Positions 5,052 to 16,334 of a DNA stretch of 17,474 nt are shown one piece after another. Position numbers and translations under genes: made by a program. Position 1 is the stretch's first letter, and every line of letters begins with the position of its first letter. Location of the stretch: positions 1 through 17,474 of the forward strand of contig JANLSU010000002.1 in assembly GCA_031362565.1 (NCBI GenBank). Direction: 5' to 3'. The notes beneath the pieces are model-generated. The model was not told the DNA's origin. It ran no database searches and was given only the letters and a program-made list of their open reading frames with translations. This stretch comes from a bacterium (GTDB taxonomy: Bacteria; Krumholzibacteriota; Krumholzibacteriia; G020349025).

Positions 5052-7793
5052 TCACGGGCCGCCGAGCAGCGGTCCGATTTCGCAGGCTTTGGCCGCGGGC
5101 GTGACGATGTAGGTGTCCGAGCCGGCGGTGAACAACGAACGCCTGGTGATGGCAATGCGATCCTGCATGGCGGTGCAAAGAACCAAGGAGCGGCCGGGGA
5201 ACTCCGGATTGGCGACCGCGACGGCGACGCCGAATTTCTCGGCCCGATAGCCCTTGTTGTTGACGATCACGGCGCCATCTTCCCAACGTACCGGCAAGCG
5301 CGACGCCCAGCGCGCGATCCACGAGTTCGAGTCCGGCGTGCCGACCAACAATAGATTCATGCTCTGCGCCATCGGCTCCGTGAGCGCCGAGTCGGCGATG
5401 AGGCGCGGCTCGCCCAGGAACCGGCGCCGCCATTCATCAGCGACCTGGCGGGCGGTCGTGGCGTCGGATTGCGGTGGATGGAGCGCGATCGCCTCCGGGG
5501 CCGGTTTCGTATCGGCAGCCGCAGCCGGTGTAGTCCGCGTGCCGTAGACGATCGCGAACGGCCCGCGCGCGAAGACATCACACAGCGGGCCGCCGTTCGA
5601 TGCAAACAGCGCAGCGTTCGGCGCGCCGCCCGTGGCGAGGGTATGGGCGGCGAGAAATGCGCCGGTCGCATTGAGCTGCGCATCGAAAAACCGCGGGCCA
5701 TGATCGCCGCTCTGGTCGAGCACGAATTCGTGGGCGATTCCCAGCTCCTTCAGACGTGCGTCCATGATCCGCGCGTGCACCGGCGACACCACGGCATCGT
5801 GTTCGCCGTGCACGATTCGAAACGCCGTTCGTGGCGCCGCGCGCAGCAAGCGCACCGGGTTGTGGGCGTCGAACCAGCCGCGCTCCGCCGGCTGGAACTC
5901 GAGCAGTTTGAAGATGTCGCTTTGATCGAGATCACCATACGCGGCGATGGGATTCGCGGCCGCGAACAGCCCCGGATGGCGCAGCGCCAAGAGCCAGGTT
6001 CCAGTACCGCCCATGCCGTCGCCGGTCAGGTACAGGCGCCGCGCATCCACCAACCCATCCGCACGCACCGCTTGCAAAACCTCGAGCACATCGCGCTCGC
6101 CGGCCAGCGTGTATCCCGAATTGCCCCGGCCGTAGGGGCACACCGCAATCCAGCCGCGCTCTTGACACTGGACCGCGAGTGTCGAGTTGTCGAAGAGCGC
6201 CGACTCGTTCTGATCGAGGTCATGCAACGCCACGAGGAGCGGCGCTTGCGAAGCGACACCATGCGGCACGAACATCGTGAAGGGCTGCACACTGCCGTCG
6301 AGAGACGAACGGTGGCCGCGCAGCAGAACAGTATCGACGGGCAAGTTGCCGTGCACCCGTTGCGGCCAAAGTTCCGCGAGGCGCGCCACGGCAGCAGGCT
6401 CACCGCGCCGCACGCCGGCGAGGACTTCGGCCTCGTCGAGATTCGCCTCGACGGCGCTCCATGCCGCCATGCGGTAGGCCAGGATGCCAGTCGGATGAAA
6501 CTTGCGGTCGTCCCATACCCCGAGGGCGGCGGCGTCACGGCGGGCGCGTTGGAAGCGCACCACGACATCGGGCCCGGCGGGAAATGCGGTGCTCGTGTCG
6601 CCCAAAGCGGCGGCCTCGGCGGTTGCGAGCGCGGTCCCGAGCATCTCATCGGACGGCGCGAGCAACATCGTGCTGCGCTGCACGGGTGACGTGGCGCCGG
6701 TCAGCGTCACATCGACCGAAAATTCGCGCCCCGGGCCTGACACGGCCTTGGCGCCGGGCAGTGACCGTACGCAGGCGAAGAACGGCTGATGGGGTGCCGC
6801 GGCCCGTAACGGGCGCGTGCCGCGCAGCGCTCCAGTTGGAAATTCGAGGCTGAGCGTGTGCGCGTGCGCCGCGCCCGTGGGCGGCACCACCAGCCATTCG
6901 CAGAGCGACTCGGCGTACGGCCCCTGCGGGATCGTGAACCAGGTGTCGGGCCCCGGCCCACCCGTTGCATCGAAAATGCCCCAACTGGGGAGCCGGCCTT
7001 TGGCGCCGGCACCGACCGACCACGCGACGCGCTTGGCGATGCCGGCTTCGAAATCGTCCGCCATGACGTTGCACAGGAGCTTGGCATCGGCGCGCGGAAA
7101 AGCGGGATACAACGCCGCCCAGGGTATGAAGAGTTCGAAATCCAAGCGCCCGGCGGCCGCGGGATCGCGCCGCACCGCGGCGCGCACGCCGAGCGCGGTC
7201 GCATCGAACGGTTCCCGCCGCTTGTTGCGCAACAGCGTCCAGGCCTCGAGGCGGCCATCGGCGCGCACGCGCAGGCTGCGTGAACCGCCCATCCAGTAGC
7301 GCTGCACGACGTGCGACTCGGAGGCGAGCGCCAACGTGACGGATTCGCGTTCGAGCCCGGGCGCGCTCGGCGCTGAAAGCGAGTCGTCCCGCATTTGGGC
7401 CGCGAACCAAACGCCGCCCGCGTTCCACTGCATCGCAAAGCGCACCGCCAGGTCGGCGTCGCCATGCCAGTCGCCGGCGAGGCGAGCCTGCGGCCCGGCA
7501 ATGTCATACCAGCGTTCGAGGCGCCATTCGGCGAGATCGCCATCGATCGCGACCACTCGTTCGGCCCAGTGCACGAACGCCCGCGCCCGGTTCGCCGAAC
7601 CAAGCGAATCGGGGGGATAGACTTGGCTGGCGAATTTATCGCCGGGCGGGTAGATGGGCGGCAGGAGTGATTCGTCCCACGGCCGCACGTCGAGTGTCAG
7701 CGGCGGCGCGGCCCAGGCTCCGGGCACCGCGCTCCCTACGAGAGTCGCAGTGAAGACCATGGCCGCAAACAACGCTGTCGTCGGTCGCCGCAT
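5052..7793 (-). CDS. Large secreted protein: CBM9/DOMON-like domain + alpha/beta-hydrolase (S9 peptidase/esterase-like) fold + C-terminal domain; nucleophile Ser absent
   Basis: Signal peptide MRRPTTALFAAMVFTATLVGSAVPGAWA. CBM9-like IDGDLAEW...VWFAAQMRDD...FELFIPW. Hydrolase motifs SSLDGSVQPF, PYGRG, GERDVLEVL, RLYLTGDGMGG, HGEHDAVV and GDHG. Start could alternatively be 7826. Confidence 0.78.
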   Translation of the reverse strand: MRRPTTALFAAMVFTATLVGSAVPGAWAAPPLTLDVRPWDESLLPPIYPPGDKFASQVYPPDSLGSANRARAFVHWAERVVAIDGDLAEWRLERWYDIAGPQARLAGDWHGDADLAVRFAMQWNAGGVWFAAQMRDDSLSAPSAPGLERESVTLALASESHVVQRYWMGGSRSLRVRADGRLEAWTLLRNKRREPFDATALGVRAAVRRDPAAAGRLDFELFIPWAALYPAFPRADAKLLCNVMADDFEAGIAKRVAWSVGAGAKGRLPSWGIFDATGGPGPDTWFTIPQGPYAESLCEWLVVPPTGAAHAHTLSLEFPTGALRGTRPLRAAAPHQPFFACVRSLPGAKAVSGPGREFSVDVTLTGATSPVQRSTMLLAPSDEMLGTALATAEAAALGDTSTAFPAGPDVVVRFQRARRDAAALGVWDDRKFHPTGILAYRMAAWSAVEANLDEAEVLAGVRRGEPAAVARLAELWPQRVHGNLPVDTVLLRGHRSSLDGSVQPFTMFVPHGVASQAPLLVALHDLDQNESALFDNSTLAVQCQERGWIAVCPYGRGNSGYTLAGERDVLEVLQAVRADGLVDARRLYLTGDGMGGTGTWLLALRHPGLFAAANPIAAYGDLDQSDIFKLLEFQPAERGWFDAHNPVRLLRAAPRTAFRIVHGEHDAVVSPVHARIMDARLKELGIAHEFVLDQSGDHGPRFFDAQLNATGAFLAAHTLATGGAPNAALFASNGGPLCDVFARGPFAIVYGTRTTPAAAADTKPAPEAIALHPPQSDATTARQVADEWRRRFLGEPRLIADSALTEPMAQSMNLLLVGTPDSNSWIARWASRLPVRWEDGAVIVNNKGYRAEKFGVAVAVANPEFPGRSLVLCTAMQDRIAITRRSLFTAGSDTYIVTPAAKACEIGPLLGGP

Positions 7794-7905
7794 CGCGGTG
7801 TTTGGCTCGGGGCTCGAACGCACCATGGCGCTGAATATGGCGTGCCGCGCCGCCAAACGCTACCCAGCCCGCCCCGCGGCCGGCAGGCGTGGGTGTGCTT
7901 GCGAC

Positions 7906-7963
7906 AAGAAATCGAAAAGAGTGCCGAAAGGCGAACGAGGCGCTCGGAGAGAGCGCCCCGTTC
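7906..7963 (-). terminator. Probable 3' end/terminator of the ncRNA
   Basis: 13-bp stem GAACGGGGCGCUC-UCUCC-GAGCGCCUCGUUC, then a small GCC-UUUC-GGC hairpin and UCUUUUCGAUUUCUU. The U-tract is not directly adjacent to the long stem. Confidence 0.45.
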
Positions 7964-8268
7964 AATGGTGTCGCCGCCTCTGCGCCCAGAACCATGGCCA
8001 GAACGCCTTGCGTGGGAGGGACAAGGCGTAACGCTCCGTTGGCCACCCGGACCGGCGACACCCGCCGAGTCATGGCAACGAACGTTGGCGTTGAGGATCG
8101 GTGCGGATTCTGGAGTCGAGTCGTGATGTGGTACCGGGTCCGCACGGCTCCCTGGAGTCAGGGTCCCGAGGAGGGGGCAGAACCCCCTCCCCGGATTTCC
8201 TGTTGCTCGTTGTCCCCTGGCAGGTTACCAGGTGACCGCGAGCTCTCCGCCGTTGCTCGTTGCACCCT
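7910..8268 (-). ncRNA. Putative sigma54-dependent structured non-coding RNA (~360 nt), family not recognised
   Basis: No credible ORF. At least six stem-loops (8236-8212, 8194-8166, 8163-8150, 8145-8101, 8062-7967, 7963-7933). Several contain G-U pairs that would be A-C on the plus strand. Upstream -24/-12 promoter and U-rich 3' tail. Ends are approximate. Confidence 0.6.
8202..8262 (-). repeat. 11-nt direct repeat CAACGAGCAAC x2
   Basis: Plus-strand GTTGCTCGTTG at 8202-8212 and 8252-8262, exactly 50 nt apart. Confidence 0.85.
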
Positions 8269-8278
8269 CTTCTTCCTT

Positions 8279-8295
8279 TGCAGGGTTCATGCCGT
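8279..8295 (-). promoter_or_regulatory. sigma54 (RpoN) -24/-12 promoter
   Basis: Minus strand ACGGCATG-AACC-CTGCA vs consensus YTGGCACG-N4-TTGCW, with exact GG-N10-GC spacing. Confidence 0.7.
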
Positions 8296-8321
8296 CTTCT
8301 GGCACTAGTCCTTCTTCCACG

Positions 8322-8334
8322 CAACTCACTGTTT
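8322..8334 (-). promoter_or_regulatory. IHF-like binding site
   Basis: Minus strand AAACAG-TGAG-TTG vs WATCAR-N4-TTR (1 mismatch). It lies between the -24 element and the candidate enhancer boxes. Confidence 0.45.
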
Positions 8335-8351
8335 TTCAATGGATAGGGCTC

Positions 8352-8389
8352 AAAAAGACAGGGTCCGGCGCGACTCGCCGGACCCTGTC
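8352..8389 (-). terminator. Rho-independent terminator of the 8811-8449 gene
   Basis: Perfect 14-bp stem GACAGGGTCCGGCG / CGCCGGACCCTGTC with a 5-nt loop, followed by TTTTT on the minus strand. Confidence 0.88.
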
Positions 8390-8393
8390 AAAA

Positions 8394-8427
8394 GGCAAAT
8401 TTTTTAACAACCGTTAATTCTCTGGAC
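8394..8427. promoter_or_regulatory. Candidate tandem upstream activator sequences (GTYAA-N5-TTRAC-like)
   Basis: GGCAAATTTTTTAAC (8394-8408) and GTTAATTCTCTGGAC (8413-8427), ~125-160 nt upstream of the predicted start site. Related boxes occur at 13467-13499. Confidence 0.5.
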
Positions 8428-8448
8428 GCCTCGTTTGAGTCCAGGCGG

Positions 8449-8811
8449 TTATTCCGTGTTCTGAGGTCCGGTGCGTTTGTCGATATCGCCGCTCTCCAGC
8501 GAGAACGGGACGGGCGTCGCGCCGACCGAAATCGTCGTGGTGATGTTCCGATTCACCCATCGGATCACGACCTGGACCGGTTCGGTGCCGGAAGTCCGGA
8601 CGGCCTCGCCTTTGACTCGGATGCTCGAGATCTCGATGAATGACACTTCGGCCGGGCCGTAGGTGGTGACCTCGACGATCTGCCCGTTCGCCAGGCGCGT
8701 CGAACTCGTGCCGCCGCCCACCGAGGGCGGAATGATGGTCTCCTGCGCAGAAGCCGCCACCGGCACAAGTGCCATGGCGCAAATCAACAGGCCAAAGCAA
8801 AGCTTTTTCAT
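8449..8811 (-). CDS. Small secreted beta-rich hypothetical protein (120 aa)
   Basis: Classic signal peptide MKKLCFGLLICAMALVPVAASA-Q. It has its own sigma70-like promoter and a strong terminator. Confidence 0.85.
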   Translation of the reverse strand: MKKLCFGLLICAMALVPVAASAQETIIPPSVGGGTSSTRLANGQIVEVTTYGPAEVSFIEISSIRVKGEAVRTSGTEPVQVVIRWVNRNITTTISVGATPVPFSLESGDIDKRTGPQNTE

Positions 8812-8851
8812 CGCATGCCCCGATCCCTTGGGGAACTACCCGAGTGAGCGA

Positions 8852-8880
8852 AGTATACGCCGCGCGGGGCCGAGCGTCCA
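8852..8880 (-). promoter_or_regulatory. sigma70-type promoter for the 120-aa gene
   Basis: Minus strand TGGACG-17 nt-TATACT, ~40 nt upstream of ATG 8811. Confidence 0.65.
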
Positions 8881-8894
8881 CGCCATTCTGAAGG

Positions 8895-8911
8895 CTGGCA
8901 CGGACCTGGCG
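8895..8911 (+). promoter_or_regulatory. sigma54-like -24/-12 element pointing antisense into the bEBP 3' end
   Basis: CTGGCACG-GACC-TGGCG: perfect -24 box, GG-N10-GC spacing, and TGGC at -12. Confidence 0.4.
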
Positions 8912-8954: not shown

Positions 8955-11900
8955 TCACTTCAAGCGCGTGTAGAGGGTCGGCTTGCTGATTCCGAGCATT
9001 CGGGCACTCAGGGTTTTCTCGCGGAATTTGTCGACCGCGGCCCGGGCCAGCGCTTTTTCCAGGCTTTCCATGAGTGGGTCACGGATCGAGTAGGCGGCGT
9101 GGTCGAGGATCCAGCGCGCCACTTCGTCGATCGACGCCTCGCCGGGCGTTTCGCCGCCCTCGCGGCCGCGCAGCACTGCCGTCGGCAGGTCTTCCGGCAA
9201 TAGGACGTCGCGATTCGAAAGCACCAGGCTGCCCTTCATGGCGTTTTCGAGTTCGCGAATGTTGCCCGGCCAGGCGTAGCGCATCATGATGCGCAGCGCC
9301 TCACCCGACACCGTCTTCGGACGCAGGCCCATGAGCCCGGAGTGCATCTTCAGAAAGAACTTCGCCAGGTCGGGAATATCCTCGCGCCGTTCACGAAGCG
9401 GCGGCATGGTGAGTGCGAGGACATTGATGCGATGAAAGAGGTCGCGCCGGAACCGGCCGGCTTCGACCGCCGCCTCGAGTTTTTGATTCGTTGCCGCCAC
9501 GATCCGCACGTCGACGCGGGTCGGCTCGGTCGCACCGACCCGGGTGATCGTCTTGTCTTGCAGCACTCGCAAGAGTTTGGTTTGCATATCCCAGGGCATG
9601 TCGCCGATCTCGTCCAGGAGCATCGTGCCGCGGTGTGCCGCTTCGAAGAAACCCTTGCGCGACTCGTGCGCATCGGTGAAGGCGCCCTTTTCGTTGCCGA
9701 ACAACTCGCGCTCCCACAGCGCTTCGGGAATCGCCGTGCAGTTGATGCTGATGAGCGGAAATCCGCGGCGTTTGCCGGTGCCATGAATGGCGCGTGCGAC
9801 GACTTCCTTCCCGGTGCCGTTGTCGCCCATGAGCAACACCGTGGCGTCCAAGTCGCGCACCTGGCGGACGAAATCGACGATGTGCTGGCGCGCCGAGCTG
9901 CGGCCGATGATGCTGTCGAGGCCGGTTTCGTCCGCCGCCGGCGCCAAGGGGCTCGCATCGCCGGCCGTCGACATCTTCCGCATGCCCGGCGCCGATTCGC
10001 GCTCCAGAACGAACGCAACGTGCTGGGCAATCGTGCGCAGTACCGGCATTTTCGCTTCTTCGAGTTGCGGTGCGCCGAGGTCCCATTCCAAGTAGATGCA
10101 ACCGACCGCGACGTCGGCGGCCTCCAGCGGCAGCACATAGAAAGGCCGCGCCGGCTTCTCGCCCGGCACGTCGTCGGATCCGAACGGCACGAGCATTTGG
10201 AGAGCGCGGCCGACAAGGCGCGGATGATCGAGAATCGCCGGTGGCTCGACACCGGGAGCGTGATCGGTCACCGACGCACGATGCGGCACCGAGTCGGCGC
10301 CGACGACCACGACGTGGCGAGCACCAGAGACGGCGCGCAACTCCTGGAGAATCGATTCGAGCGCCCGGCCATCGCTGCCGGAACTCGCCGCGAGGGCCGC
10401 GGTCCGGCACAACGCATCCACGAGCCGCGTGCTGTCGGCGCCTTCCACGGCCGTAACGTTGGTGCCGAGCACCGCCTCGAGGTCCACGAGTTGTTTCGGT
10501 GTGACGCCGGCGCCATCGCGCGCGAACATCGGACGCGCCCGCTCGACCAGGTCGCGGGCCCGGGATTCGACGCCGCTGTCGTGATAGAGCTGGGCTGCTT
10601 TCAGGAACACTTCGGCAGCCCGGCGGGTGTTCCCCAGACGCGCCAAATTGTTCCCCGCATGCTCGTAGGACAACGCCGCCTGGCGCAAATCGCCTTGGGC
10701 ATGGCGCAACTCGCCGTGCGTCAGATGCCAGTTCGCCTCCTCGAGCGGTGAACCGGCACTCGACAGATACTCTTCCGCCTCCCGCAGACGCTGCTCGGCG
10801 TTGTCGAGGTGGCCGCTCCGCAGTTCCAGGCTGGCGAACTTGCGCAAGTTCACGAACAACTCGGCCATGTCGCCGAGGGCCCGCGTTTCGTCGATCGCTT
10901 CCTGCAAGACGGCGCGCGCTTCCGGCATGCGTTCCTGCAGCAAGTAGATCTCGCCCAGCAATCCTTTCCCAAGCGCCCGGGTACTTGGAACGCCCAGATC
11001 GTCGCCCAGGCGGCAGGCGCGGATTGCATGCTCCTCGGCTGTGTCGAGATTGCCCATCTCGAAGTGCACCCACCCGAGATTGACGAGATTGCGTGCTACC
11101 CCTTCCTCGTCACCCAGCTCCTGGCGAATCGCGACACTTCTCTGATGATGCTCGAGCGATTCCGGGAAGCGGTGCATGGCGCGGTACAGAACGCCGAGGT
11201 TGTTGTACACGCGCGCCACCGCGAGCCGGTCGCCGATTTTCTCGCGCAGCGCCAAGCAGGTCGAAAAATATTGTTCGGCTTCCTCGTAGCGGCTGGTCTT
11301 CCAGCGGATCGAAGCCAGCGCGCTGTAGACCTGCGCGACGTCCTTGGCGTCATCGCGCGCGTCGAGCAGCTTGAGCGCCACTTGGCAACGGTCCTCGGCC
11401 GCATTGAAGCGGCTCAACCGCAGCTCGCAATACGCCTGCTCCGAGAACAGGCGGCCGCGGTCCGAAGCGCGCAAGCGGTCGCCGAAACGTTCCAAGAACC
11501 GCTGCACGAGGTCGAGAGCCCGCGCCGGCCCCACCCGCCGCTCCAGAAGATCGGCATGTGCCAAGATCATTGCGGTCACGTTCTCGAAGTCGAACCCGTC
11601 GGCCTCGTTCTCCGCCGACTGGAACAAGCGTTCCGCCGCGCGCTCATAGTAACTTTGGCCTTCGCTGAACTTGCCGTGCTCGACTTCCCAAGCACCGAGC
11701 CGTTGCAGAAGCCACAGCAAGCGCGGCAGCGGCACGTGATGGACGAGGTTCGAACTCACCAGTTTGCGCTGCACGGCGCGGCATAGGGTGTCGAGACCGC
11801 GTTTTTCCGCGGCTTTGAGCAGCGGTTCCGCGGCGATCACCGCATCTTCCCAACTGCCGCCGGCAAAGAGATGATGAAACCGCAAGTAGCGCTGGCCGAG

Positions 11901-13451
11901 CGATTGCGCGTCGGAGTGTTCGAGCAGATGTGAAATGAGCAGATGCAACTCTTCACGGCGTTCCGGGGTCAGCGCCGAACGCCGCGCCTCGAGCACGTCG
12001 GGACGCAAGGCGCGCAGCACGAGCCGTAACTCGGAACCCCACCAACCGCCGGAATCCAGTTGCCGGCGGACGTGCCCGGCCCGCTCCAGTTCGACGATCG
12101 CCTCGGGCAAACTTGCTTCCTGGCTCGGCAGCGCTTGGCGCAACATGGCGGCCGTCGCATCGACTTCCAGCACACAAAGCAGATCCAGCAAATGCCGGGC
12201 GGCAGGCGATGTCGGTGGCGCCGGGTCCGCGAACGCGGCGTCGACGATCGATACCGTGCGCACCGCGACGTCGGCGCCGCAGCACGCCCGCGCCCAGGTC
12301 GCGACATCGCCACCGGTTGAATCCGGCAGGACCGCTCCACGCCGCATGCCGACGACGGCCAGGAAAGGCCGCACCCGGTCCCACTGCAGCGTGGCGAGCG
12401 GCAAGAGTTGGGGCTCGCCCGGCTGCTCGTCGGGCACCAACAGAACATGGCCGCCATCGCCCACGAGATCGCGCGGCTCCCAAGCACTCAGCGCTTCAAT
12501 CCAGGTCACACGCGGCCGCTCGGTGAGAAAGGACAACCGTTCACGCACCCGGAAGAAGAGCTGCTTCAGGCCGGCGCCGTTTGCCCCACCCTCGATCACC
12601 ACGACGCTGCTGCGTCCGGCTGCGAGTTGTTCCAAACACGCATCCATCGCTTCGATGACAGCCGACTCACTGGCGCCGAATGCGGTGACGCGCACATCGG
12701 ACAGGCGTTCGACACTGCGCCGCAGGGGGTCGGCGTTGACCGGCGCAAAGGGTTCGTCGAGTTCGCGCGCCAATACATCGGGGCCGGTGCGCAACTCGGG
12801 TTCGAGGGCCAGCATGCGCATGACCCGCGGCAGCCATTCGGGAGCCGCATCGTTGCCGCGATCGACGATCGCTGCCAGCACCGCACCGAGCATGTATCCG
12901 TCGGTGGTCGAGGCGAACAAACCGGCGTGCCGCAGTTCCGGCGGTTGGTATGGCGACCGCGCGCCTAAGCGCGCCAACATTTCGAACGGCAGCACCCACG
13001 CTCCGGGCAGCACCACGAAGCGGTCGCCCTGCCACGCCAAGTACTCCGGCCGCAAATTGAGGATGTGATCGCCGCCGGCATTCGCCGCCGCGAGATCGAC
13101 GAGTAGTGCTTGCAGGGCATGGGTATCCGGCAATCGGGTCGGCGCCAACCCGTGGAGCGCGAGGTCGTCGTCGGTCGAATACACATAGTAGGGGCCCTGG
13201 GACCAGGATCCGACCGCGAGGACCGGCACAAAACTCGGCAGCGCCGCAAACCGCTCGATGCGGTTCCGGAGCGCCGGCAGCCAGTCTTCGGTCCAGCGCC
13301 CCGCAATCCGGTCGAAGCCGTCGGCCGCCGGGCATTCCAGCACGTCGATCCGGCCGCGAATCAGGTCGCTGGCCCGATACCGGGTGCGCCCGGCGAGCTT
13401 GGGCAAGGGCTCGAGGATCCGGAACTTGGAGTCGACAATCGTCTCGGCCAC
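8955..13451 (-). CDS. Giant sigma54 enhancer-binding protein: degenerate protein-kinase-like domain + degenerate P-loop domain + TPRs + GAF-like + AAA+ + Fis-type HTH
   Basis: GTG follows GGAGG. AAA+ motifs GDNGTGKE, INCTAIPE, ELFGNEKGAFTDA, LLDEIGDM, AATN, FRRDLFHRIN and WPGNIRELEN. HTH ARMLGISKPTLY. TPRs such as ARVYNNLGVLY and ARNLVNLGWVH. N-terminal kinase remnants LNLRPEY, YQPPE and DGYMLG. Confidence 0.9.
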   Translation of the reverse strand: MAETIVDSKFRILEPLPKLAGRTRYRASDLIRGRIDVLECPAADGFDRIAGRWTEDWLPALRNRIERFAALPSFVPVLAVGSWSQGPYYVYSTDDDLALHGLAPTRLPDTHALQALLVDLAAANAGGDHILNLRPEYLAWQGDRFVVLPGAWVLPFEMLARLGARSPYQPPELRHAGLFASTTDGYMLGAVLAAIVDRGNDAAPEWLPRVMRMLALEPELRTGPDVLARELDEPFAPVNADPLRRSVERLSDVRVTAFGASESAVIEAMDACLEQLAAGRSSVVVIEGGANGAGLKQLFFRVRERLSFLTERPRVTWIEALSAWEPRDLVGDGGHVLLVPDEQPGEPQLLPLATLQWDRVRPFLAVVGMRRGAVLPDSTGGDVATWARACCGADVAVRTVSIVDAAFADPAPPTSPAARHLLDLLCVLEVDATAAMLRQALPSQEASLPEAIVELERAGHVRRQLDSGGWWGSELRLVLRALRPDVLEARRSALTPERREELHLLISHLLEHSDAQSLGQRYLRFHHLFAGGSWEDAVIAAEPLLKAAEKRGLDTLCRAVQRKLVSSNLVHHVPLPRLLWLLQRLGAWEVEHGKFSEGQSYYERAAERLFQSAENEADGFDFENVTAMILAHADLLERRVGPARALDLVQRFLERFGDRLRASDRGRLFSEQAYCELRLSRFNAAEDRCQVALKLLDARDDAKDVAQVYSALASIRWKTSRYEEAEQYFSTCLALREKIGDRLAVARVYNNLGVLYRAMHRFPESLEHHQRSVAIRQELGDEEGVARNLVNLGWVHFEMGNLDTAEEHAIRACRLGDDLGVPSTRALGKGLLGEIYLLQERMPEARAVLQEAIDETRALGDMAELFVNLRKFASLELRSGHLDNAEQRLREAEEYLSSAGSPLEEANWHLTHGELRHAQGDLRQAALSYEHAGNNLARLGNTRRAAEVFLKAAQLYHDSGVESRARDLVERARPMFARDGAGVTPKQLVDLEAVLGTNVTAVEGADSTRLVDALCRTAALAASSGSDGRALESILQELRAVSGARHVVVVGADSVPHRASVTDHAPGVEPPAILDHPRLVGRALQMLVPFGSDDVPGEKPARPFYVLPLEAADVAVGCIYLEWDLGAPQLEEAKMPVLRTIAQHVAFVLERESAPGMRKMSTAGDASPLAPAADETGLDSIIGRSSARQHIVDFVRQVRDLDATVLLMGDNGTGKEVVARAIHGTGKRRGFPLISINCTAIPEALWERELFGNEKGAFTDAHESRKGFFEAAHRGTMLLDEIGDMPWDMQTKLLRVLQDKTITRVGATEPTRVDVRIVAATNQKLEAAVEAGRFRRDLFHRINVLALTMPPLRERREDIPDLAKFFLKMHSGLMGLRPKTVSGEALRIMMRYAWPGNIRELENAMKGSLVLSNRDVLLPEDLPTAVLRGREGGETPGEASIDEVARWILDHAAYSIRDPLMESLEKALARAAVDKFREKTLSARMLGISKPTLYTRLK

Positions 13452-13500: not shown

Positions 13501-13526
13501 CGTAGGGAGGGTCTGGTTCAAGTTCG

Positions 13527-13591: not shown

Positions 13592-14944
13592 GTGTTTCGA
13601 ACGAATTCCAGACGAACTCTATTGATCGCCGCCCTGGTCGGGGTCGGGGTGATCGTATTGAATGTTGCCCTCGGCCTGCTGTACCGCGAGTCGCGCCGGG
13701 GCGTCGAAGCCGAACTCGGGCGCCGCCTCGAAGACGTCGTTAGCGTCTTGGGCCGGTTCCTCGATCCGAACTTGGTGCAACGTGCCGCCACCGAGGCCTT
13801 CGCACCGGTCGACTCGGCGGGCGGATCCGGTCCGCCGGCGCCGCGGCCGGCCGCCGATTCCTTGCGTGCGATTCTGAACGAGGTCGCCGATGCGACCGAC
13901 CTGGCGAACGTGCGGGTCTACGACGCAGTCGGTGTGGCATTTCTCGATATCGCCGGACTCGGGCACAGCGACACCGCACCCGAAGCACTCGATCCCGCCG
14001 GAGTCACTGCCGCGCTCACCGGCTCGACCGTGCACAGCGAGCCCTTCGAGTCGGGCGGCGAGTTCTTGATGGCCGGATACGCGCCGGTCCGCGACGCTGC
14101 CGGCGTGCCGGTCGCGGCGGTCGCCGTCGAGGCCGACGCGCGTTTTTTCGAAGCCGTGCAGCGGTTGCGTTTCGCGATGATCGGCAGCGCCGTGCTGAGC
14201 GCGCTCGTCCTGATCGGGCTCGGCGTGACATTCGCGCGCGTGCAAGCGTCGCTGCAGCACGCCCAGGCCGCCATGCAACAGGCCGAGACGCTGGCCGCCA
14301 TGGGCCGCATGGCCGCCGGCATCGCCCACGAGATCCGCAACCCGCTCGGCATCATCAAGGCCACCGCGGCACGGCTCAAGAAGCGTTATGACGACAGCGC
14401 CAATCCGGACGAGCGTTTCGATTACATTTCCGACGAGGTCGAGCGCCTGAATGCCATCTTGACCGGCTATCTCAGCTTCGCCCGCGACGAACCGTCGGTG
14501 CGCACGGCGCTCGATCTCACGCTGCTCGTGCAACGCAGCATGCGGCTCGCGGCGCCGGAACTGGAGAGTGCCGGCGTCCAGGTCGAAGTGCAGACGCCGC
14601 CCGAGTGCACGGTGCTGGGCGACGCGCAACGCCTGCAGCAAGTGGTTTTGAACTTGGTGCTGAACGCGGCCCAAGCGATGCTGCAGGGCGGCAGCCTCGT
14701 GGTCCGGCTCGAGGCCGCCCACGGAATGGCACGACTGAGCTTCGAAGACACCGGGCCGGGGCTGCCGCCGGGCGCCCGCGACCGGCTCTTCGAACCATTC
14801 GTGACGACCAAGGAGAAAGGCAGCGGACTCGGCCTCGCGGTGGCGCAACGCATCGTCGAGGAGCATGAGGGCCGCATCACACTGGGCGACGCGGCGGGCG
14901 GCGGCGCCCGCGTCGAAGTCGCACTGCCACTCGCAGCCGGTTGA
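13592..14944 (+). CDS. Membrane sensor histidine kinase (NtrB/ZraS/AtoS-like)
   Basis: Two TM segments flank a periplasmic Cache-like region (GYAPVRD). H-box AHEIRNPL, N-box QVVLNLVLNA, G1 DTGPG, F-box LFEPFVTTK and G2 GSGLGL. Confidence 0.95.
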   Translation: MFRTNSRRTLLIAALVGVGVIVLNVALGLLYRESRRGVEAELGRRLEDVVSVLGRFLDPNLVQRAATEAFAPVDSAGGSGPPAPRPAADSLRAILNEVADATDLANVRVYDAVGVAFLDIAGLGHSDTAPEALDPAGVTAALTGSTVHSEPFESGGEFLMAGYAPVRDAAGVPVAAVAVEADARFFEAVQRLRFAMIGSAVLSALVLIGLGVTFARVQASLQHAQAAMQQAETLAAMGRMAAGIAHEIRNPLGIIKATAARLKKRYDDSANPDERFDYISDEVERLNAILTGYLSFARDEPSVRTALDLTLLVQRSMRLAAPELESAGVQVEVQTPPECTVLGDAQRLQQVVLNLVLNAAQAMLQGGSLVVRLEAAHGMARLSFEDTGPGLPPGARDRLFEPFVTTKEKGSGLGLAVAQRIVEEHEGRITLGDAAGGGARVEVALPLAAG

Positions 14945-14960
14945 AGCACTGGAGACTCGC

Positions 14961-16334
14961 ATGACCGACATCCTCATCGTCGACGACGAGAAGCGCATGG
15001 GCCTGCTCCTCAAGGAGGAATTGCAGGACGCCGGCTACACGGTGGATGTCGAGTCGACGGGCGCCGGCGCGCTGGCACGGCTCGACGCCCAGCACTACGC
15101 GCTCGTGCTGTCCGATATCCGCATGGCGCCGCCCGACGGGCTCGAGATCCTGCGCATCACGAAGGAAAAATCGCCGTCGACGGACGTCATCATGATGACC
15201 GCGTATGCGTCGACGCAGACGGCGGTGCAAGCGATGAAACTTGGCGCCTACGACTATGTCATCAAGCCCTTCGACATGGAGGAAGTGCGCCTCATGGTGC
15301 AGCGGGCGTTCGAGCGCCAGGGATTGACGCGCGACAAGGCTACCCTGGCGCGCGAAAACGCCACGTTGCGCGATCAGCTGGCCGGCGTGCACCGCTCGAC
15401 GATCGTCGGCGAAAGTGCCGCGATCCAGGAATTGCGCCGCCTCATCGTTTTGGTGGCCGAATCCGAGGCGACCGTCTTCGTGAAGGGCGCGAGCGGCGCC
15501 GGCAAGGAACTCGTGGCGGCCGAGATCCACGCCCAGAGCCGGCGCGCCGGTGCGCCGTTCGTGGCCGTCAACTGCGCCGCCATCCCCGACACGTTGCTCG
15601 AGGGCGAACTTTTCGGTTCGGAAAAGGGCGCCTACACCGGCGCCGACGCGCGCAAGATCGGCCGCTTCGAGATGGCGCAGCACGGCACCATCTTTCTCGA
15701 CGAGATCGGCGAGATGGGTGCCGGCGTGCAGGCCAAACTGCTACGCGTGTTGGAGGAGCGCAAGATCACGCGCTTGGGCGGCAGCGGGCCCATCGATGTC
15801 GACATTCGCATCATCGCCGCTACGAATCGCAACCTCGAGGACATGATCCGCGACGGCCGCTTTCGGGACGACCTCTTCTACCGGCTGAATGTCTTTCCGA
15901 TCGAAGTGCCGCCGCTCGCGGCGCGCCGCGCCGATGTGCCGCTCTTGGCGGAGTTCTTTCTGCGCGAGCTGCGTTACGCACATTCCAAGTTGCCGTTGGA
16001 TGCGATCGAGGTCTTGCGGGCCCACGATTGGCCGGGCAACGTCCGCGAGTTGCGCAACGTCGTCGAGCGGGCCACCATCTTGGCGCGCGGGGGGCCGATC
16101 GAAGCGCTGCATTTCAGCCTGCCGCGGGCGCCGGGCGCCGCGGCCGCCAACGGCCCGATTTCGCTCGAGATGGACGTGCCGGAAGGCGGCATCGATCTCG
16201 AGCAGCTCGAAAAAAACCTCATCGGTAAGGCCTTGGTGCGGGCCGGCGGCAACAAATCGCAGGCCGCCCGGTTGCTGGGGATGACGCGCCGTACCTTGTA
16301 CAGTCGCATGGAGAAGCATGGGATCCAGGACTGA
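14961..16334 (+). CDS. sigma54-dependent response regulator (NtrC/AtoC/ZraR family)
   Basis: ATG 14961 follows GGAG. Receiver motifs VDDE, SDIRM, MTAY and KPF. AAA+ motifs GASGAGKE, GAYTGA, FLDEIGE and WPGNVRELRN. HTH GNKSQAARLLGMTRRTLY. Confidence 0.95.
   Translation: MTDILIVDDEKRMGLLLKEELQDAGYTVDVESTGAGALARLDAQHYALVLSDIRMAPPDGLEILRITKEKSPSTDVIMMTAYASTQTAVQAMKLGAYDYVIKPFDMEEVRLMVQRAFERQGLTRDKATLARENATLRDQLAGVHRSTIVGESAAIQELRRLIVLVAESEATVFVKGASGAGKELVAAEIHAQSRRAGAPFVAVNCAAIPDTLLEGELFGSEKGAYTGADARKIGRFEMAQHGTIFLDEIGEMGAGVQAKLLRVLEERKITRLGGSGPIDVDIRIIAATNRNLEDMIRDGRFRDDLFYRLNVFPIEVPPLAARRADVPLLAEFFLRELRYAHSKLPLDAIEVLRAHDWPGNVRELRNVVERATILARGGPIEALHFSLPRAPGAAAANGPISLEMDVPEGGIDLEQLEKNLIGKALVRAGGNKSQAARLLGMTRRTLYSRMEKHGIQD

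Follow-up and report, generated by a model that had tools for sequence, protein, structure and literature searches.

What is encoded on the minus strand between the gene for a small secreted protein and that for an esterase-like enzyme in this 17,474-nt stretch of DNA (the window, by which we mean the whole stretch analysed)? The DNA belongs to an uncultured soil or sediment bacterium of the Krumholzibacteriia, a group known from metagenomes only, whose 5.4-Mb genome is 100% complete with an A+T content of 34.7%. A preliminary description had proposed a structured regulatory RNA under sigma-54 control. It is likely that the locus is just that: an independent gene, reading on the minus strand from near 8268 to near 7910, for a structured non-coding RNA some 350 nt long that is transcribed by the sigma-54 RNA polymerase and constitutes the output of the adjacent activator. 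Comparative sequence evidence establishes the RNA gene together with its promoter, strand, structure and linkage.

In every locus that reaches far enough, the minus-strand order is activator gene, small secreted protein gene, enhancer-like boxes, promoter and RNA. The predicted RNA covers 7905-8268 (about 335-365 nt, with the start taken from the promoter and the end from a terminal hairpin and U-rich tail). BLAST, an exact motif and a covariance model agree that it is single-copy in all seven genomes of one Krumholzibacteriia family, and metagenome contigs add 13 further distinct variants. Short matches to DNA patterns (2/7, 9/26 and 8/16), which came without the promoter and the remainder of the RNA, were set aside as chance.

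The promoter is the best-defined of the control elements. With GG-N10-GC, resembling TGGCACG-N4-TTGCW, as the criterion, the element CGGCATGAACCCTGCA lies on the minus strand at 8294-8279 (-24 GG at 8293-8292, -12 GC at 8281-8280) and agrees with 9 of 12 consensus positions; the predicted +1 at 8268 is read off it. The same element occurs in all 29 related loci, with 8-11 of the 12 positions matched, that is, in 20/20 loci carrying the window's type of RNA, which bears out the promoter originally proposed, and in 9/9 of a sister type considered below. It is followed by an invariant sequence block at a distance of 13-17 nt in the window's type and of exactly 12 nt in the sister type. The genome encodes RpoN, which is found on contig 38 and scores 213 bits with Sigma54_DBD.

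In a sigma-54 unit, activator binding is expected some 80-200 bp upstream of the promoter. The tandem palindromic boxes that had been claimed are found on the minus strand at 8417-8394, about 100-125 bp 5' of the -24 element, where the palindrome TTAACGGTTGTTAA (8417-8404) overlaps GTTAAAAAATTTGCC (8408-8394); T-rich TTWAC / GTWAA boxes can be seen by eye at the same position, right after the stop codon of the small gene, in the homologous loci. Between these presumed enhancer boxes and the promoter stands an intrinsic terminator for the small-protein transcript (8389-8352, minus strand), with a 14-bp stem of 11 G-C pairs, a 5-nt loop and TTTTT, which had been recognised before and which a consensus scan also calls. 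The IHF site placed at 8334-8322 has fared less well: the weak minus-strand candidate AAACAGTGAGTTG differs at two positions from WATCAANNNNTTR, a match equalled by 42% of shuffles of the spacer and thus no better than chance. Sites with at most one mismatch occur in 14 of 28 related loci, the enhancer-promoter spacer is about 50% A+T as against the genome's 34.7%, and the genome contains five genes of the HU/IHF family.

The activator itself (8955-13451, minus strand) is a bacterial enhancer-binding protein of 1498 aa, in which an N-terminus of about 620 aa is followed by a MalT-like TPR region, a sigma-54 AAA+ domain, an AAA lid and a C-terminal helix-turn-helix (Pfam matches to Sigma54_activat at E 1.3e-63, TPR_12, TPR_MalT and AAA_lid_14; no NCBIfam equivalog at its cut-off). 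Full-length orthologues, 52-59% identical, are found in five of five relatives. The N-terminal 620 aa match no PDB sequence and no recognised family; by eye, they could be read as a pseudokinase and a degenerate STAND-type NTPase. Directly 5' of the gene, on the same strand, are two operator-like boxes, GTTAAAAATATTGAC (13499-13485) and TTTTTTTAACGCGG (13476-13463), which are probably autoregulatory binding sites. The box GTTAAAAANNTTG has only two sites in the 5.4-Mb genome, one in the RNA enhancer and the other directly 5' of the activator gene; the pattern was derived from these very two sites, and what is independent of that choice is that there is no third site and that the boxes are conserved in relatives, a GTWAR-N4-6-YTWAC box standing directly 5' of the activator start in the 5/5 family relatives examined. 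A box unique in the genome to these two places ties RNA and activator together, so that the earlier suggestion that the RNA is the output of the neighbouring activator gains a support beyond mere adjacency.

The gene that lies between them (8449-8811, minus strand) encodes a small secreted protein of 120 aa with a signal peptide, a seven-strand beta domain and a conserved C-terminal tail, LE(G/S)GDxDKR. It is found directly 5' of the RNA in 18 of the 18 loci that reach far enough, with 148-225 nt from its stop codon to the invariant block. The core of its AF2 model has pLDDT >90; neither Pfam nor NCBIfam has a family for it, and Foldseek found no PDB structure resembling it at E <= 0.001. A consensus scan assigns the gene a sigma-70-like promoter of its own, TGGACG-N17-TATACT (8852-8880, minus strand), and the TGGAC/TATACT pair is visible by eye, though uncounted, in most of 17 loci. 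One RNA-library run contained a 40-nt piece with about 85% likeness to 8656-8695.

That the stretch beyond the promoter encodes a structured RNA, and does so on the minus strand, is argued by folding and by comparison. As minus-strand RNA, 7905-8270 folds at -180.3 kcal/mol (z -5.99), and as plus-strand RNA at -170.0 kcal/mol (z -3.73); in each case none of 100 shuffles does as well, so that both strands fold beyond shuffles and the minus strand does so better. The first case for the minus strand had been made from G-U pairs, and the homologues agree with it: among 18 of them, 96.4% of the pairs in the 3' domain are canonical when read as minus-strand RNA versus 88.8% as plus strand, with G.U accounting for 52 of 609 cells, and controls in which the pairing was slid reach 36-49%. 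RNAalifold finds 27 of 53 pairs compensated by changes on both sides. In a hand-set model of the 3' domain the same is true of 15 of 34 pairs, the cells with changes on both sides number 57 as compared with 15.9 in shuffles, and none of 500 shuffles reaches the observed values. The alignment was made with MAFFT and not fitted to structure, and compensatory change so far above the shuffles establishes that the structure is conserved.

The RNA would begin, 2-6 nt from its predicted 5' end, with the invariant block UGCAACGAGCAACGGCGGAGAG, 22 nt long (8243-8264), identical in 18/18 aligned homologues and in 7/7 genomes. No conserved intramolecular partner for it was found: in 17 of the 18 its duplex energy with the rest of the molecule is within about 1 sd of shuffles, or weaker, while in the window's own RNA it is about 1.8 sd stronger. 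A closing helix with a partner GCUCGUU, which inspection by eye suggests for some 11 of the 18, was considered and dropped, since the energies are mostly no better than those of shuffles. The 5' domain continues (8166-8243, minus strand) with two hairpins, H1 (8243-8205), the pairs of which covary (alignment columns 25-64), and H2 (8194-8166), with a G-run/C-run stem, which appears in the minimum-free-energy folds of most homologues and is absent from a short subgroup (genus g2 and locus L027).

The long 3' arm (7967-8062) has a closing helix of 8062-8053 with 7976-7967 and an apical hairpin at 8029-8003 with the loop CCCUCCCAC. Helix 1 of the arm has 10 pairs and is 99.4% paired, and the apical helix has 8 pairs, 5 of them changed on both sides; between these paired parts, the bulge GCAGAGG (7983-7977) and the internal loop GGAGCGUU (8037-8030) are unpaired and invariant. 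A covarying terminal hairpin (7962-7934; 12 pairs, 5 changed on both sides, 98.6% paired) and a U-rich tail (7933-7905) follow and form the probable 3' end. The series of minus-strand stem-loops and the U-rich end that had been described are thus all present, though the U-run starts more than 10 nt past the terminal hairpin and is not called as a terminator by a simple scan. A covariance model of the 3' arm and terminal hairpin (R1, 131 positions), which matches the window at 8066-7930, finds one match in each of the seven family genomes.

None of the 4227 models of Rfam 15, among which Pxr, CrcZ, Qrr, GlmY and CsrB/RsmZ should be found if that release has them, matches the window at its gathering score. 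The best row below threshold, McaS with 27.2 bits against a required 42, covers the terminator region and lies outside the RNA; a scan of the window by E-value returned chance-level rows only, and seven related loci likewise gave no match. With a conserved, covarying structure, no match to a known family and, as set out below, no coding signal, the RNA is as new and unannotated as it was first taken to be.

Metatranscriptomes offer some hints of expression. Words of the RNA stretch occur in 19 RNA-library runs from 15 studies, and the matching contigs come from soil, sediment and ice samples. Contigs were placed from 4 of 22 listed RNA runs, small word shares elsewhere not being counted; in these four studies 5 of 6 pieces fall inside 7916-8258. 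None crosses the promoter and none enters the esterase gene; the one extending furthest upstream stops at 8258, 10 nt short of the predicted start, and one reaches 7916. Assembled contigs say nothing of strand, of transcript ends or of abundance, and DNA may be present in an RNA library, so the start at 8268 and the end near 7910 remain predictions; the empty flanks outside 7916-8258, for their part, are not evidence that those flanks are silent.

Sister families possess the same module with other RNAs. A model of the 3' domain run on L067 and L068, from other families, gave only noise (best E 0.032), so that the sister RNAs are not detectably homologous in that part. In the RNA of the sister family the loop AUGGGGAC is invariant and GAGGAGUGGU is unpaired, and one sister-family genome carries two convergent copies. 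Between families, either another RNA has taken the place of the module's RNA or the latter has diverged until no likeness is recognisable; the operator motif stayed.

How would such a module work? The activator would bind the boxes at 8417-8394 and the sigma-54 RNA polymerase would then transcribe the RNA, which would be the activator's dedicated output; the region ahead of the activator gene is probably bound by the activator as well. We infer this activation, like the two transcript ends, from the arrangement just described. For the RNA, we lean tentatively, and somewhat short of an even balance, toward a trans-acting regulator whose invariant and apparently unpaired 22-nt 5' end pairs with one or a few mRNAs, while the conserved 3' arm would serve stability or a protein partner. 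The search for such partners yielded no target. Allowing up to three mismatches, the complement of the 5' block occurs nowhere but in the gene itself in 7/7 genomes; a scan of the window's own genome with 11-mers gave 108 word matches as against about 30 from a rough uniform-frequency estimate, at places with at most 13 matched bases, none of which could be linked to the start of a gene. A search of the 100%-complete genome did not find Hfq. The invariant block could instead have its role in the DNA, or be a protein-binding site. Feedback by pairing with the mRNAs of the small protein or the activator was examined and rejected: RNAduplex energies against 1.3 kb of upstream sequence were near those of shuffles and no site was conserved, and three sister-family duplex matches near the start of the small gene overlap its -10 box, which is not transcribed.

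Rather unlikely, though not without support, is an RNA that binds or titrates a protein, CsrA or another RNA-binding protein, through the loop GGAGCGUU, the GCAGAGG bulge and GGAGAG in the 5' block. Several invariant unpaired segments contain GGA or AGG, conserved internal-loop sequence in a long arm typically reflects protein or tertiary contacts, the sister RNA retains its invariant loop and unpaired segment, and the genome has csrA where Hfq was not found. Yet GGA occurs 8 times in the window's RNA versus 6.1 expected, hardly to be told from the control TCC (10 versus 6.7), and in most of the 30 RNAs counted the GGA excess is about that of TCC. The genome also has fliW, whose product is the protein that usually antagonises CsrA in bacteria other than the gamma-proteobacteria. 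A CsrA sponge of the CsrB/RsmZ type was rejected, GGA not being clearly enriched.

A bolder and improbable idea is that of a self-contained circuit, in which the secreted protein or a peptide from its tail is the cue, the TPR or N-terminal part of the activator the sensor, and the sRNA the sole output, as Qrr is for LuxO. The cue would be sensed directly or after re-import, the peptide being cut from the conserved, disordered C-terminal tail. What suggests it is the strict co-occurrence of the parts, the separate and conserved promoter of the secreted protein, and the family-specific character of the components: the tail (LEGGDxDKR in the window's family, VTGHNEK in the sister family), the N-terminal 620 residues of the activator and the 5' block of the RNA are each conserved within a family and differ between the two. 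Such a circuit would resemble RRNPP quorum sensing in Gram-positives, with its TPR peptide receptors. Against it stands the well-folded beta domain of the secreted protein, unlike typical pro-peptides.

Very improbable is the proposal that the stretch is a structured 5' leader of the downstream gene (5052-7793, minus strand), which encodes a secreted esterase/peptidase-like protein (Peptidase_S9 and Esterase_PHB matches), such that the activator controls the enzyme and the folds act in cis. RNA and esterase gene share a strand, only about 110 nt separate the U-rich tail from the first ATG, an esterase homologue lies 3' of the RNA in the window and three of six relatives, and a terminal hairpin without an adjacent T-run leaves some read-through into the esterase gene possible. 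However, in the other three relatives an argC-like gene takes that place, with an AT-rich stretch before it that could be a promoter for this gene (a similar AT-rich motif follows the RNA in L027), and because the downstream gene differs between genera the RNA is not a leader. In many homologues a second, canonical terminator can be seen by eye past the conserved hairpin, and the RNA of the sister family ends at a strong intrinsic terminator, with what we read from the sequence as a convergent gene beyond. The esterase gene, moreover, has its own TAnnTTTG-like motif just 5' of the ATG in three relatives and at 7862-7853 in the window, and none of the RNA contigs extends past the RNA into that gene; it is probably a separate transcription unit and not part of the RNA.

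Hardly credible, finally, is an mRNA for a small protein with a GUG/UUG start inside the invariant block and a peptide beginning VQRATAE, for which it can be said that GTG or TTG stands at nucleotide 3 in 18/18 aligned sequences with the first 8 codons invariant and that several homologues have long open frames, but at 65% G+C chance alone should give such frames, the codon proposed for initiation is not AUG and lies at the extreme 5' end with no Shine-Dalgarno sequence seen, the peptides are unrelated past codon 9 and in several homologues the frame stops after 10-35 codons (10 in two genomes, 33 and 35 in others), most indels break the triplet frame, lengths of 1, 2, 4 and 5 nt being common, the variable columns (28/27/26 over the three phases) have no codon periodicity, and Pfam finds nothing in the three open reading frames that overlap the stretch, all of which agrees with the original judgement that there is no credible ORF.

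It is thus as a regulatory RNA gene that the locus invites comparison with known systems. The CrcZ RNA of Pseudomonas, about 400 nt long and sigma-54-dependent, lies just after cbrB and is the main output of CbrB, and the window's RNA resembles it as a large sigma-54 RNA just past an activator gene. CrcZ, however, carries repeated A-rich AANAANAA motifs bound by Hfq/Crc, whereas the RNA here, with 17% A, has none in 364 nt, and a CrcZ-type Hfq/Crc sponge was rejected on this ground and for want of Hfq in the complete genome; Rfam, too, gave no match. The Qrr RNAs of Vibrio, transcribed by sigma-54 with LuxO, are about 100 nt long, Hfq-dependent and encoded beside luxO, in some genomes in several copies; their most conserved part is the unpaired base-pairing stretch. 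Again there is a likeness, in the sRNA beside its activator, in the conserved unpaired stretch and, if one sister-family genome is considered, in the multiple copies, but the RNA here is about 350 nt long, has no Rfam match and no targets found, in a genome where Hfq was not found.

Another such system is Pxr of Myxococcus xanthus and relatives, which is encoded directly 3' of the activator gene Nla19 on the same strand, with an enhancer and a sigma-54 promoter predicted between the two genes, several stem-loops, a gene of 108 nt and a far-side neighbourhood that varies between genera (PMC5568312). The two share an sRNA beside the activator gene, its own enhancer and sigma-54 promoter, stem-loops and a variable far side; unlike the 108-nt Pxr, the RNA here reaches about 350 nt and includes a long 3' arm that covaries. 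Its activator, a TPR protein of 1498 aa, is not a response regulator as Nla19 is, and activator and RNA are always separated by the gene for a small secreted protein, which has a promoter to itself. Nor did the window's RNA match Pxr in Rfam, provided that Pxr is among the Rfam 15 models. GlmY of Enterobacteria is likewise a sigma-54/bEBP sRNA, adjoining the GlrR two-component genes, and works by protein mimicry rather than base pairing (PMC4152352); the likeness there is in the sigma-54/bEBP sRNA beside activator genes, for in sequence and size the two are unrelated and Rfam gives no match.

The regulatory design, then, is one already known from Pxr/Nla19, CrcZ/CbrB and Qrr/LuxO, and it is the RNA itself that is new. 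Those titles and abstract openings examined from papers that name Krumholzibacteriia mention no RNA regulator, and this would be the first well-bounded regulatory RNA for the group, complete with promoter, probable operator, activator and covariance model. Its practical value is modest, namely one or two candidate Rfam families and a regulon, apparently made up of a single RNA, that lends itself to testing. In a wider sense, the finding extends the design of an activator gene with a private sigma-54 sRNA to the FCB-group phyla, where it is elaborated into a three-gene module of giant TPR activator, secreted beta-sandwich protein and sRNA, and the module would provide a natural system for following the evolution of an sRNA under a fixed transcriptional input.

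The source genome, a metagenome assembly of 5.4 Mb and 65.3% G+C, is 100% complete, and the window is one entire contig of 17,474 bases. On its minus strand a sigma-54 enhancer-binding protein of 1498 amino acids (8955-13451; TPR region, Sigma54_activat and AAA lid) is followed by a small ORF of 120 amino acids (8449-8811), the translation of which shows a typical signal peptide, then by a gap of 655 nt and the gene of a secreted esterase/peptidase-like protein of 913 amino acids (5052-7793). On the plus strand (13592-16334) lie the genes of a histidine kinase and of a second sigma-54 regulator, a response regulator of NtrC type; they diverge from the giant activator, and the 140-nt intergenic region with its operator-like boxes is common to both sides. 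Two sigma-54 activators thus lie within 8 kb.

The preliminary description had placed in the gap a structured RNA of the minus strand with its own control elements, and its boxes, terminator, promoter, hairpins and U-rich tail all lie at the positions it gave. In minus-strand order they are a box palindrome TTAACGGTTGTTAA (8417-8404) overlapped by a second box, GTTAAAAAATTTGCC (8408-8394); a terminator with a 14-bp hairpin and T-run (8389-8352), also called by a consensus scan; the sigma-54 promoter CGGCATGAACCCTGCA (8294-8279), from which an RNA start at 8268 is predicted if the C of its GC is taken as -12; hairpins at 8243-8205, 8194-8166 and 7962-7934; and the U-rich tail (7933-7905). The IHF-like site also proposed there is weak, with two mismatches and with 42% of shuffled spacers scoring as well.

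The RNA had further been proposed as the output of the adjacent activator, and this is supported by matching boxes at the RNA enhancer and the activator gene. By eye, the box motif across the family is TTTTTTAC-N5-GTAAA-N2-3-TTTTTTAC, with TTAAC/GTTAA in the window genome, and the 5' region of the activator gene has a box of the same kind, GTTAAAAATATTGAC (13499-13485, minus strand). Genome-wide, the loose pattern GTTAAAAANNTTG has just two occurrences, at the RNA enhancer and at the box upstream of the activator; as it was built from these two sites, its independent content is the absence of a third. Equally independent is the finding in all five relatives compared that 5-6 kb hold a single GTWAR-N4-6-YTWAC box, immediately ahead of the activator start codon. 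The simplest reading of these sequences is that the activator would bind both before its own gene and at the RNA enhancer, the RNA being its single sigma-54 output. The activator's upstream region also holds ACCCTCCCTAC (13510-13520, minus strand), a near copy, not a complement, of the RNA apical loop CCCUCCCAC, which may be due to chance.

BLAST of the gap against 41 relatives gave matches in all six other genomes of the family (four other genera) and none in 34 genomes of seven other families. The order at the family loci is activator C-terminus, small ORF, T-rich boxes, TGGCAC-N5-TTGCA, an identical 22-nt block (8243-8264 in the window) and a conserved 3' domain made up of a long arm and the terminal hairpin. 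Exact-word scans added five true and two chance matches from the genome collection and 17 true and nine chance matches from the metagenome collection, with 20 distinct RNA variants after removal of duplicates; public relatives carrying the element are labelled Candidatus Krumholzibacteriia and, in one case, Candidatus Latescibacterota. In the 18 sequences aligned (leaving out L030, cut at 197 nt, L041, with runs of N, and L034, of 79 nt only) no position of the block UGCAACGAGCAACGGCGGAGA varies; column identity averages 58% over the remainder. With a covariance model of the 3' domain, each of the seven family genomes shows exactly one copy and, under Infernal's stricter filters, 144 genomes of eight other families show none. 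The RNA belongs to no Rfam family, in line with the novelty that had been supposed: Rfam 15 gave no match at the gathering score, and a permissive scan returned chance-level rows only.

The minus-strand fold is borne out as well. The stretch 7905-8270 folds far better than its dinucleotide shuffles, at -180.3 kcal/mol (z -5.99) as minus strand and at -170.0 (z -3.73) as plus strand. RNAalifold on the MAFFT alignment gives 53 pairs, at 27 of which one or more sequences have both partners changed with pairing preserved. The helices of the 3' domain (10-bp closing helix, 4-bp continuation, 8-bp apical hairpin and 12-bp terminal hairpin) were set by eye and then scored on a newly made MAFFT alignment: pairing holds in 96.4% of 609 cells, vs. 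89.5% in shuffles, with both-side changes at 15 of 34 pairs vs. 7.4 +/- 1.7, and none of 500 shuffles equalled the observed pairing and compensation. Pairing falls to 36-49% when the partners are slid by one to three columns. In the short continuation helix it reaches only 76%, owing to a 1-nt bulge that MAFFT puts in the wrong place. The earlier argument from G.U pairs is supported, since 52 cells are G.U and the same pairs are thus 88.8% canonical when read as plus strand. Two invariant unpaired segments, GGAGCGUU (8037-8030) and GCAGAGG (7983-7977, both minus strand), lie between these helices.

In RNA libraries, words of 7900-8300 occur in 22 runs among the matches listed, 19 of them recorded as RNA, from 15 studies, with a best share of 0.33. 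Contigs of four runs from four studies were compared with 7400-8900 at a minimum of 85% likeness, and five of six pieces fall within 7916-8258 (7916-8134, with two differences and one gap; 7956-8258; 7967-8227; 7995-8149; 8001-8042); the sixth, 40 nt of low likeness, lies inside the small gene. At just 168-326 nt in length, none of these contigs extends to the promoter, the 3' end of the small gene or the esterase gene. Since neither strand nor ends can be read from such contigs, and this same stretch served to select the runs, their placement gives only a hint of a short, abundant RNA.

As to function, 2-6 nt separate the block from the predicted 5' end, and the RNA holds no conserved partner for it, as would be expected of a seed or of a site recognised by a protein. 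Its extended complement occurs nowhere else in any of the seven family genomes, and none of the short complement matches in the window's own genome is tied to a gene start. Hfq was not found in the complete genome; csrA and fliW are both present, the GGA motifs of the RNA are not clearly enriched, and it has no A-rich Crc/Hfq motifs. Because of these results we lean, tentatively and at somewhat under even odds, towards a trans-acting, Hfq-independent regulator that would act by base pairing on few targets. Binding of a protein by the conserved loops is a good deal less probable.

The remaining probability is divided among control of the esterase gene by read-through, a very small peptide and a role of the block at the DNA level. 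The downstream gene differs among relatives, being the esterase in the window and three relatives and argC-like in three genomes of genus g2, while the activator is constant; the RNA thus travels with the activator and not with the following gene, and a leader of the esterase gene was rejected. An AT-rich stretch ahead of the argC-like gene in g2, with a similar motif after the RNA in L027, may be that gene's own promoter. A TAnnTTTG-like motif (TAGGTTTGG / TAGCGTTTGG) lies 5-30 nt ahead of the esterase start codon in the window (7853-7862, minus strand) and three relatives (L002, L003, L004), and is similar to the -7 element, TAnnTTTG, of housekeeping promoters of the Bacteroidota type; it would fit an FCB-group affiliation and suggests nearly leaderless mRNAs. 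A GTG/TTG within the block opens a frame in every homologue, but past eight invariant codons its peptides are unrelated, with stops in four genomes after 10, 10, 33 and 35 codons; most gaps measure 1 or 2 nt, variable columns are even over the three phases, and the RNA indeed has no credible ORF.

The small protein, by an HMM of 18 sequences, is present in 21 of 208 genomes of the class: all seven of the window's family f1 (own genome included), 9/12 of the sister family f5, 3/23 of f4, 1/10 of f6 and 1/91 of f2, with none in f3, f7, f8 or f9. Neither Pfam nor NCBIfam has a match for these secreted proteins of about 120 amino acids, nor does the PDB have a matching fold at E <= 0.001. They consist of a signal peptide, a seven-strand beta domain (core pLDDT >90) and a disordered tail, which is conserved as LEGGDxDKR or, in f5, as VTGHNEK. 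The gene sits between activator and RNA (window 8449-8811, minus strand; L002-L007, L024-L043, L076-L089), and a conserved TGGAC-N17-TATACT (8852-8880, minus strand) looks like its own promoter. An activator C-terminus is directly upstream in 11 of 14 loci outside f1. Two full-length f5 activators share the length and the TPR, AAA+ and HTH architecture of the window's, aligning over residues 625-1498 only (34-36% identity); the N-terminal 620 residues do not align between the two families. For residues 1-620 (11592-13451, minus strand) neither Pfam nor the PDB sequences gave a match; by eye, a degenerate domain like that of protein kinases and then a degenerate P-loop NTPase seem to precede a MalT-like TPR region, which would make the whole a STAND-like sensor joined to a sigma-54 AAA+ module.

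All nine f5 loci continue past the small gene with a terminator hairpin that has GTAAA-N5-TTTAC in its stem, plus TTTTTTTAC, then TGGCAC-N5-CTGC and, precisely at the predicted +1, an invariant block of another sequence, UGCCCGAGUAUCCGGUAU. The f5 RNA (146-166 nt) has an invariant loop AUGGGGAC, unpaired GAGGAGUGGU and an intrinsic terminator, past which the sequence looks like a possible convergent gene; an exact-word scan found this type in eight species genomes, eight further matches being chance. In L076-L087 the hairpin with its palindromic box lies about 20-60 nt past the stop codon, and the same sequence would seem to act in the RNA as terminator and in the DNA as enhancer. In some copies the box is TGTAAG-N5-CTTACA, close to the GacA box of gamma-proteobacterial RsmY/Z promoters, probably by coincidence. 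One of the eight genomes (L104, 'bacterium isolate Gpa_5', positions 401-728) carries two convergent f5-type copies about 300 nt apart, each with its own sigma-54 promoter and with adjoining terminators between them. By eye, box-like sequences and a -24/-12 element also lie past the distant small-protein homologue in f4 (L084/L085), f6 (L088) and f2 (L089), with hairpin-rich, terminator-ended stretches of 170-290 nt unrelated in sequence to the window RNA; L084/L085 have no activator gene within 1.5 kb upstream. With seven related loci scanned, Rfam gave no match to these f5, f4, f6 and f2 stretches.

CrcZ with CbrB, Qrr with LuxO and GlmY with GlrR follow the same logic as this activator-RNA pair. 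Among the papers listed that name Krumholzibacteria, no title or abstract opening concerns an RNA regulator. Of the described cases, myxobacterial Pxr, encoded behind nla19, comes closest (PMC5568312): its genes stand in the same order, its sigma-54 promoter is intergenic, its RNA forms several stem-loops, and the neighbours on the far side vary.

These observations support a real RNA gene and its interpretation as a regulatory RNA. As small protein, activator and sigma-54 RNA recur across families, the window RNA is the largest version of a class-wide module, in which the secreted-protein partner and the giant TPR activator are most worth attention.
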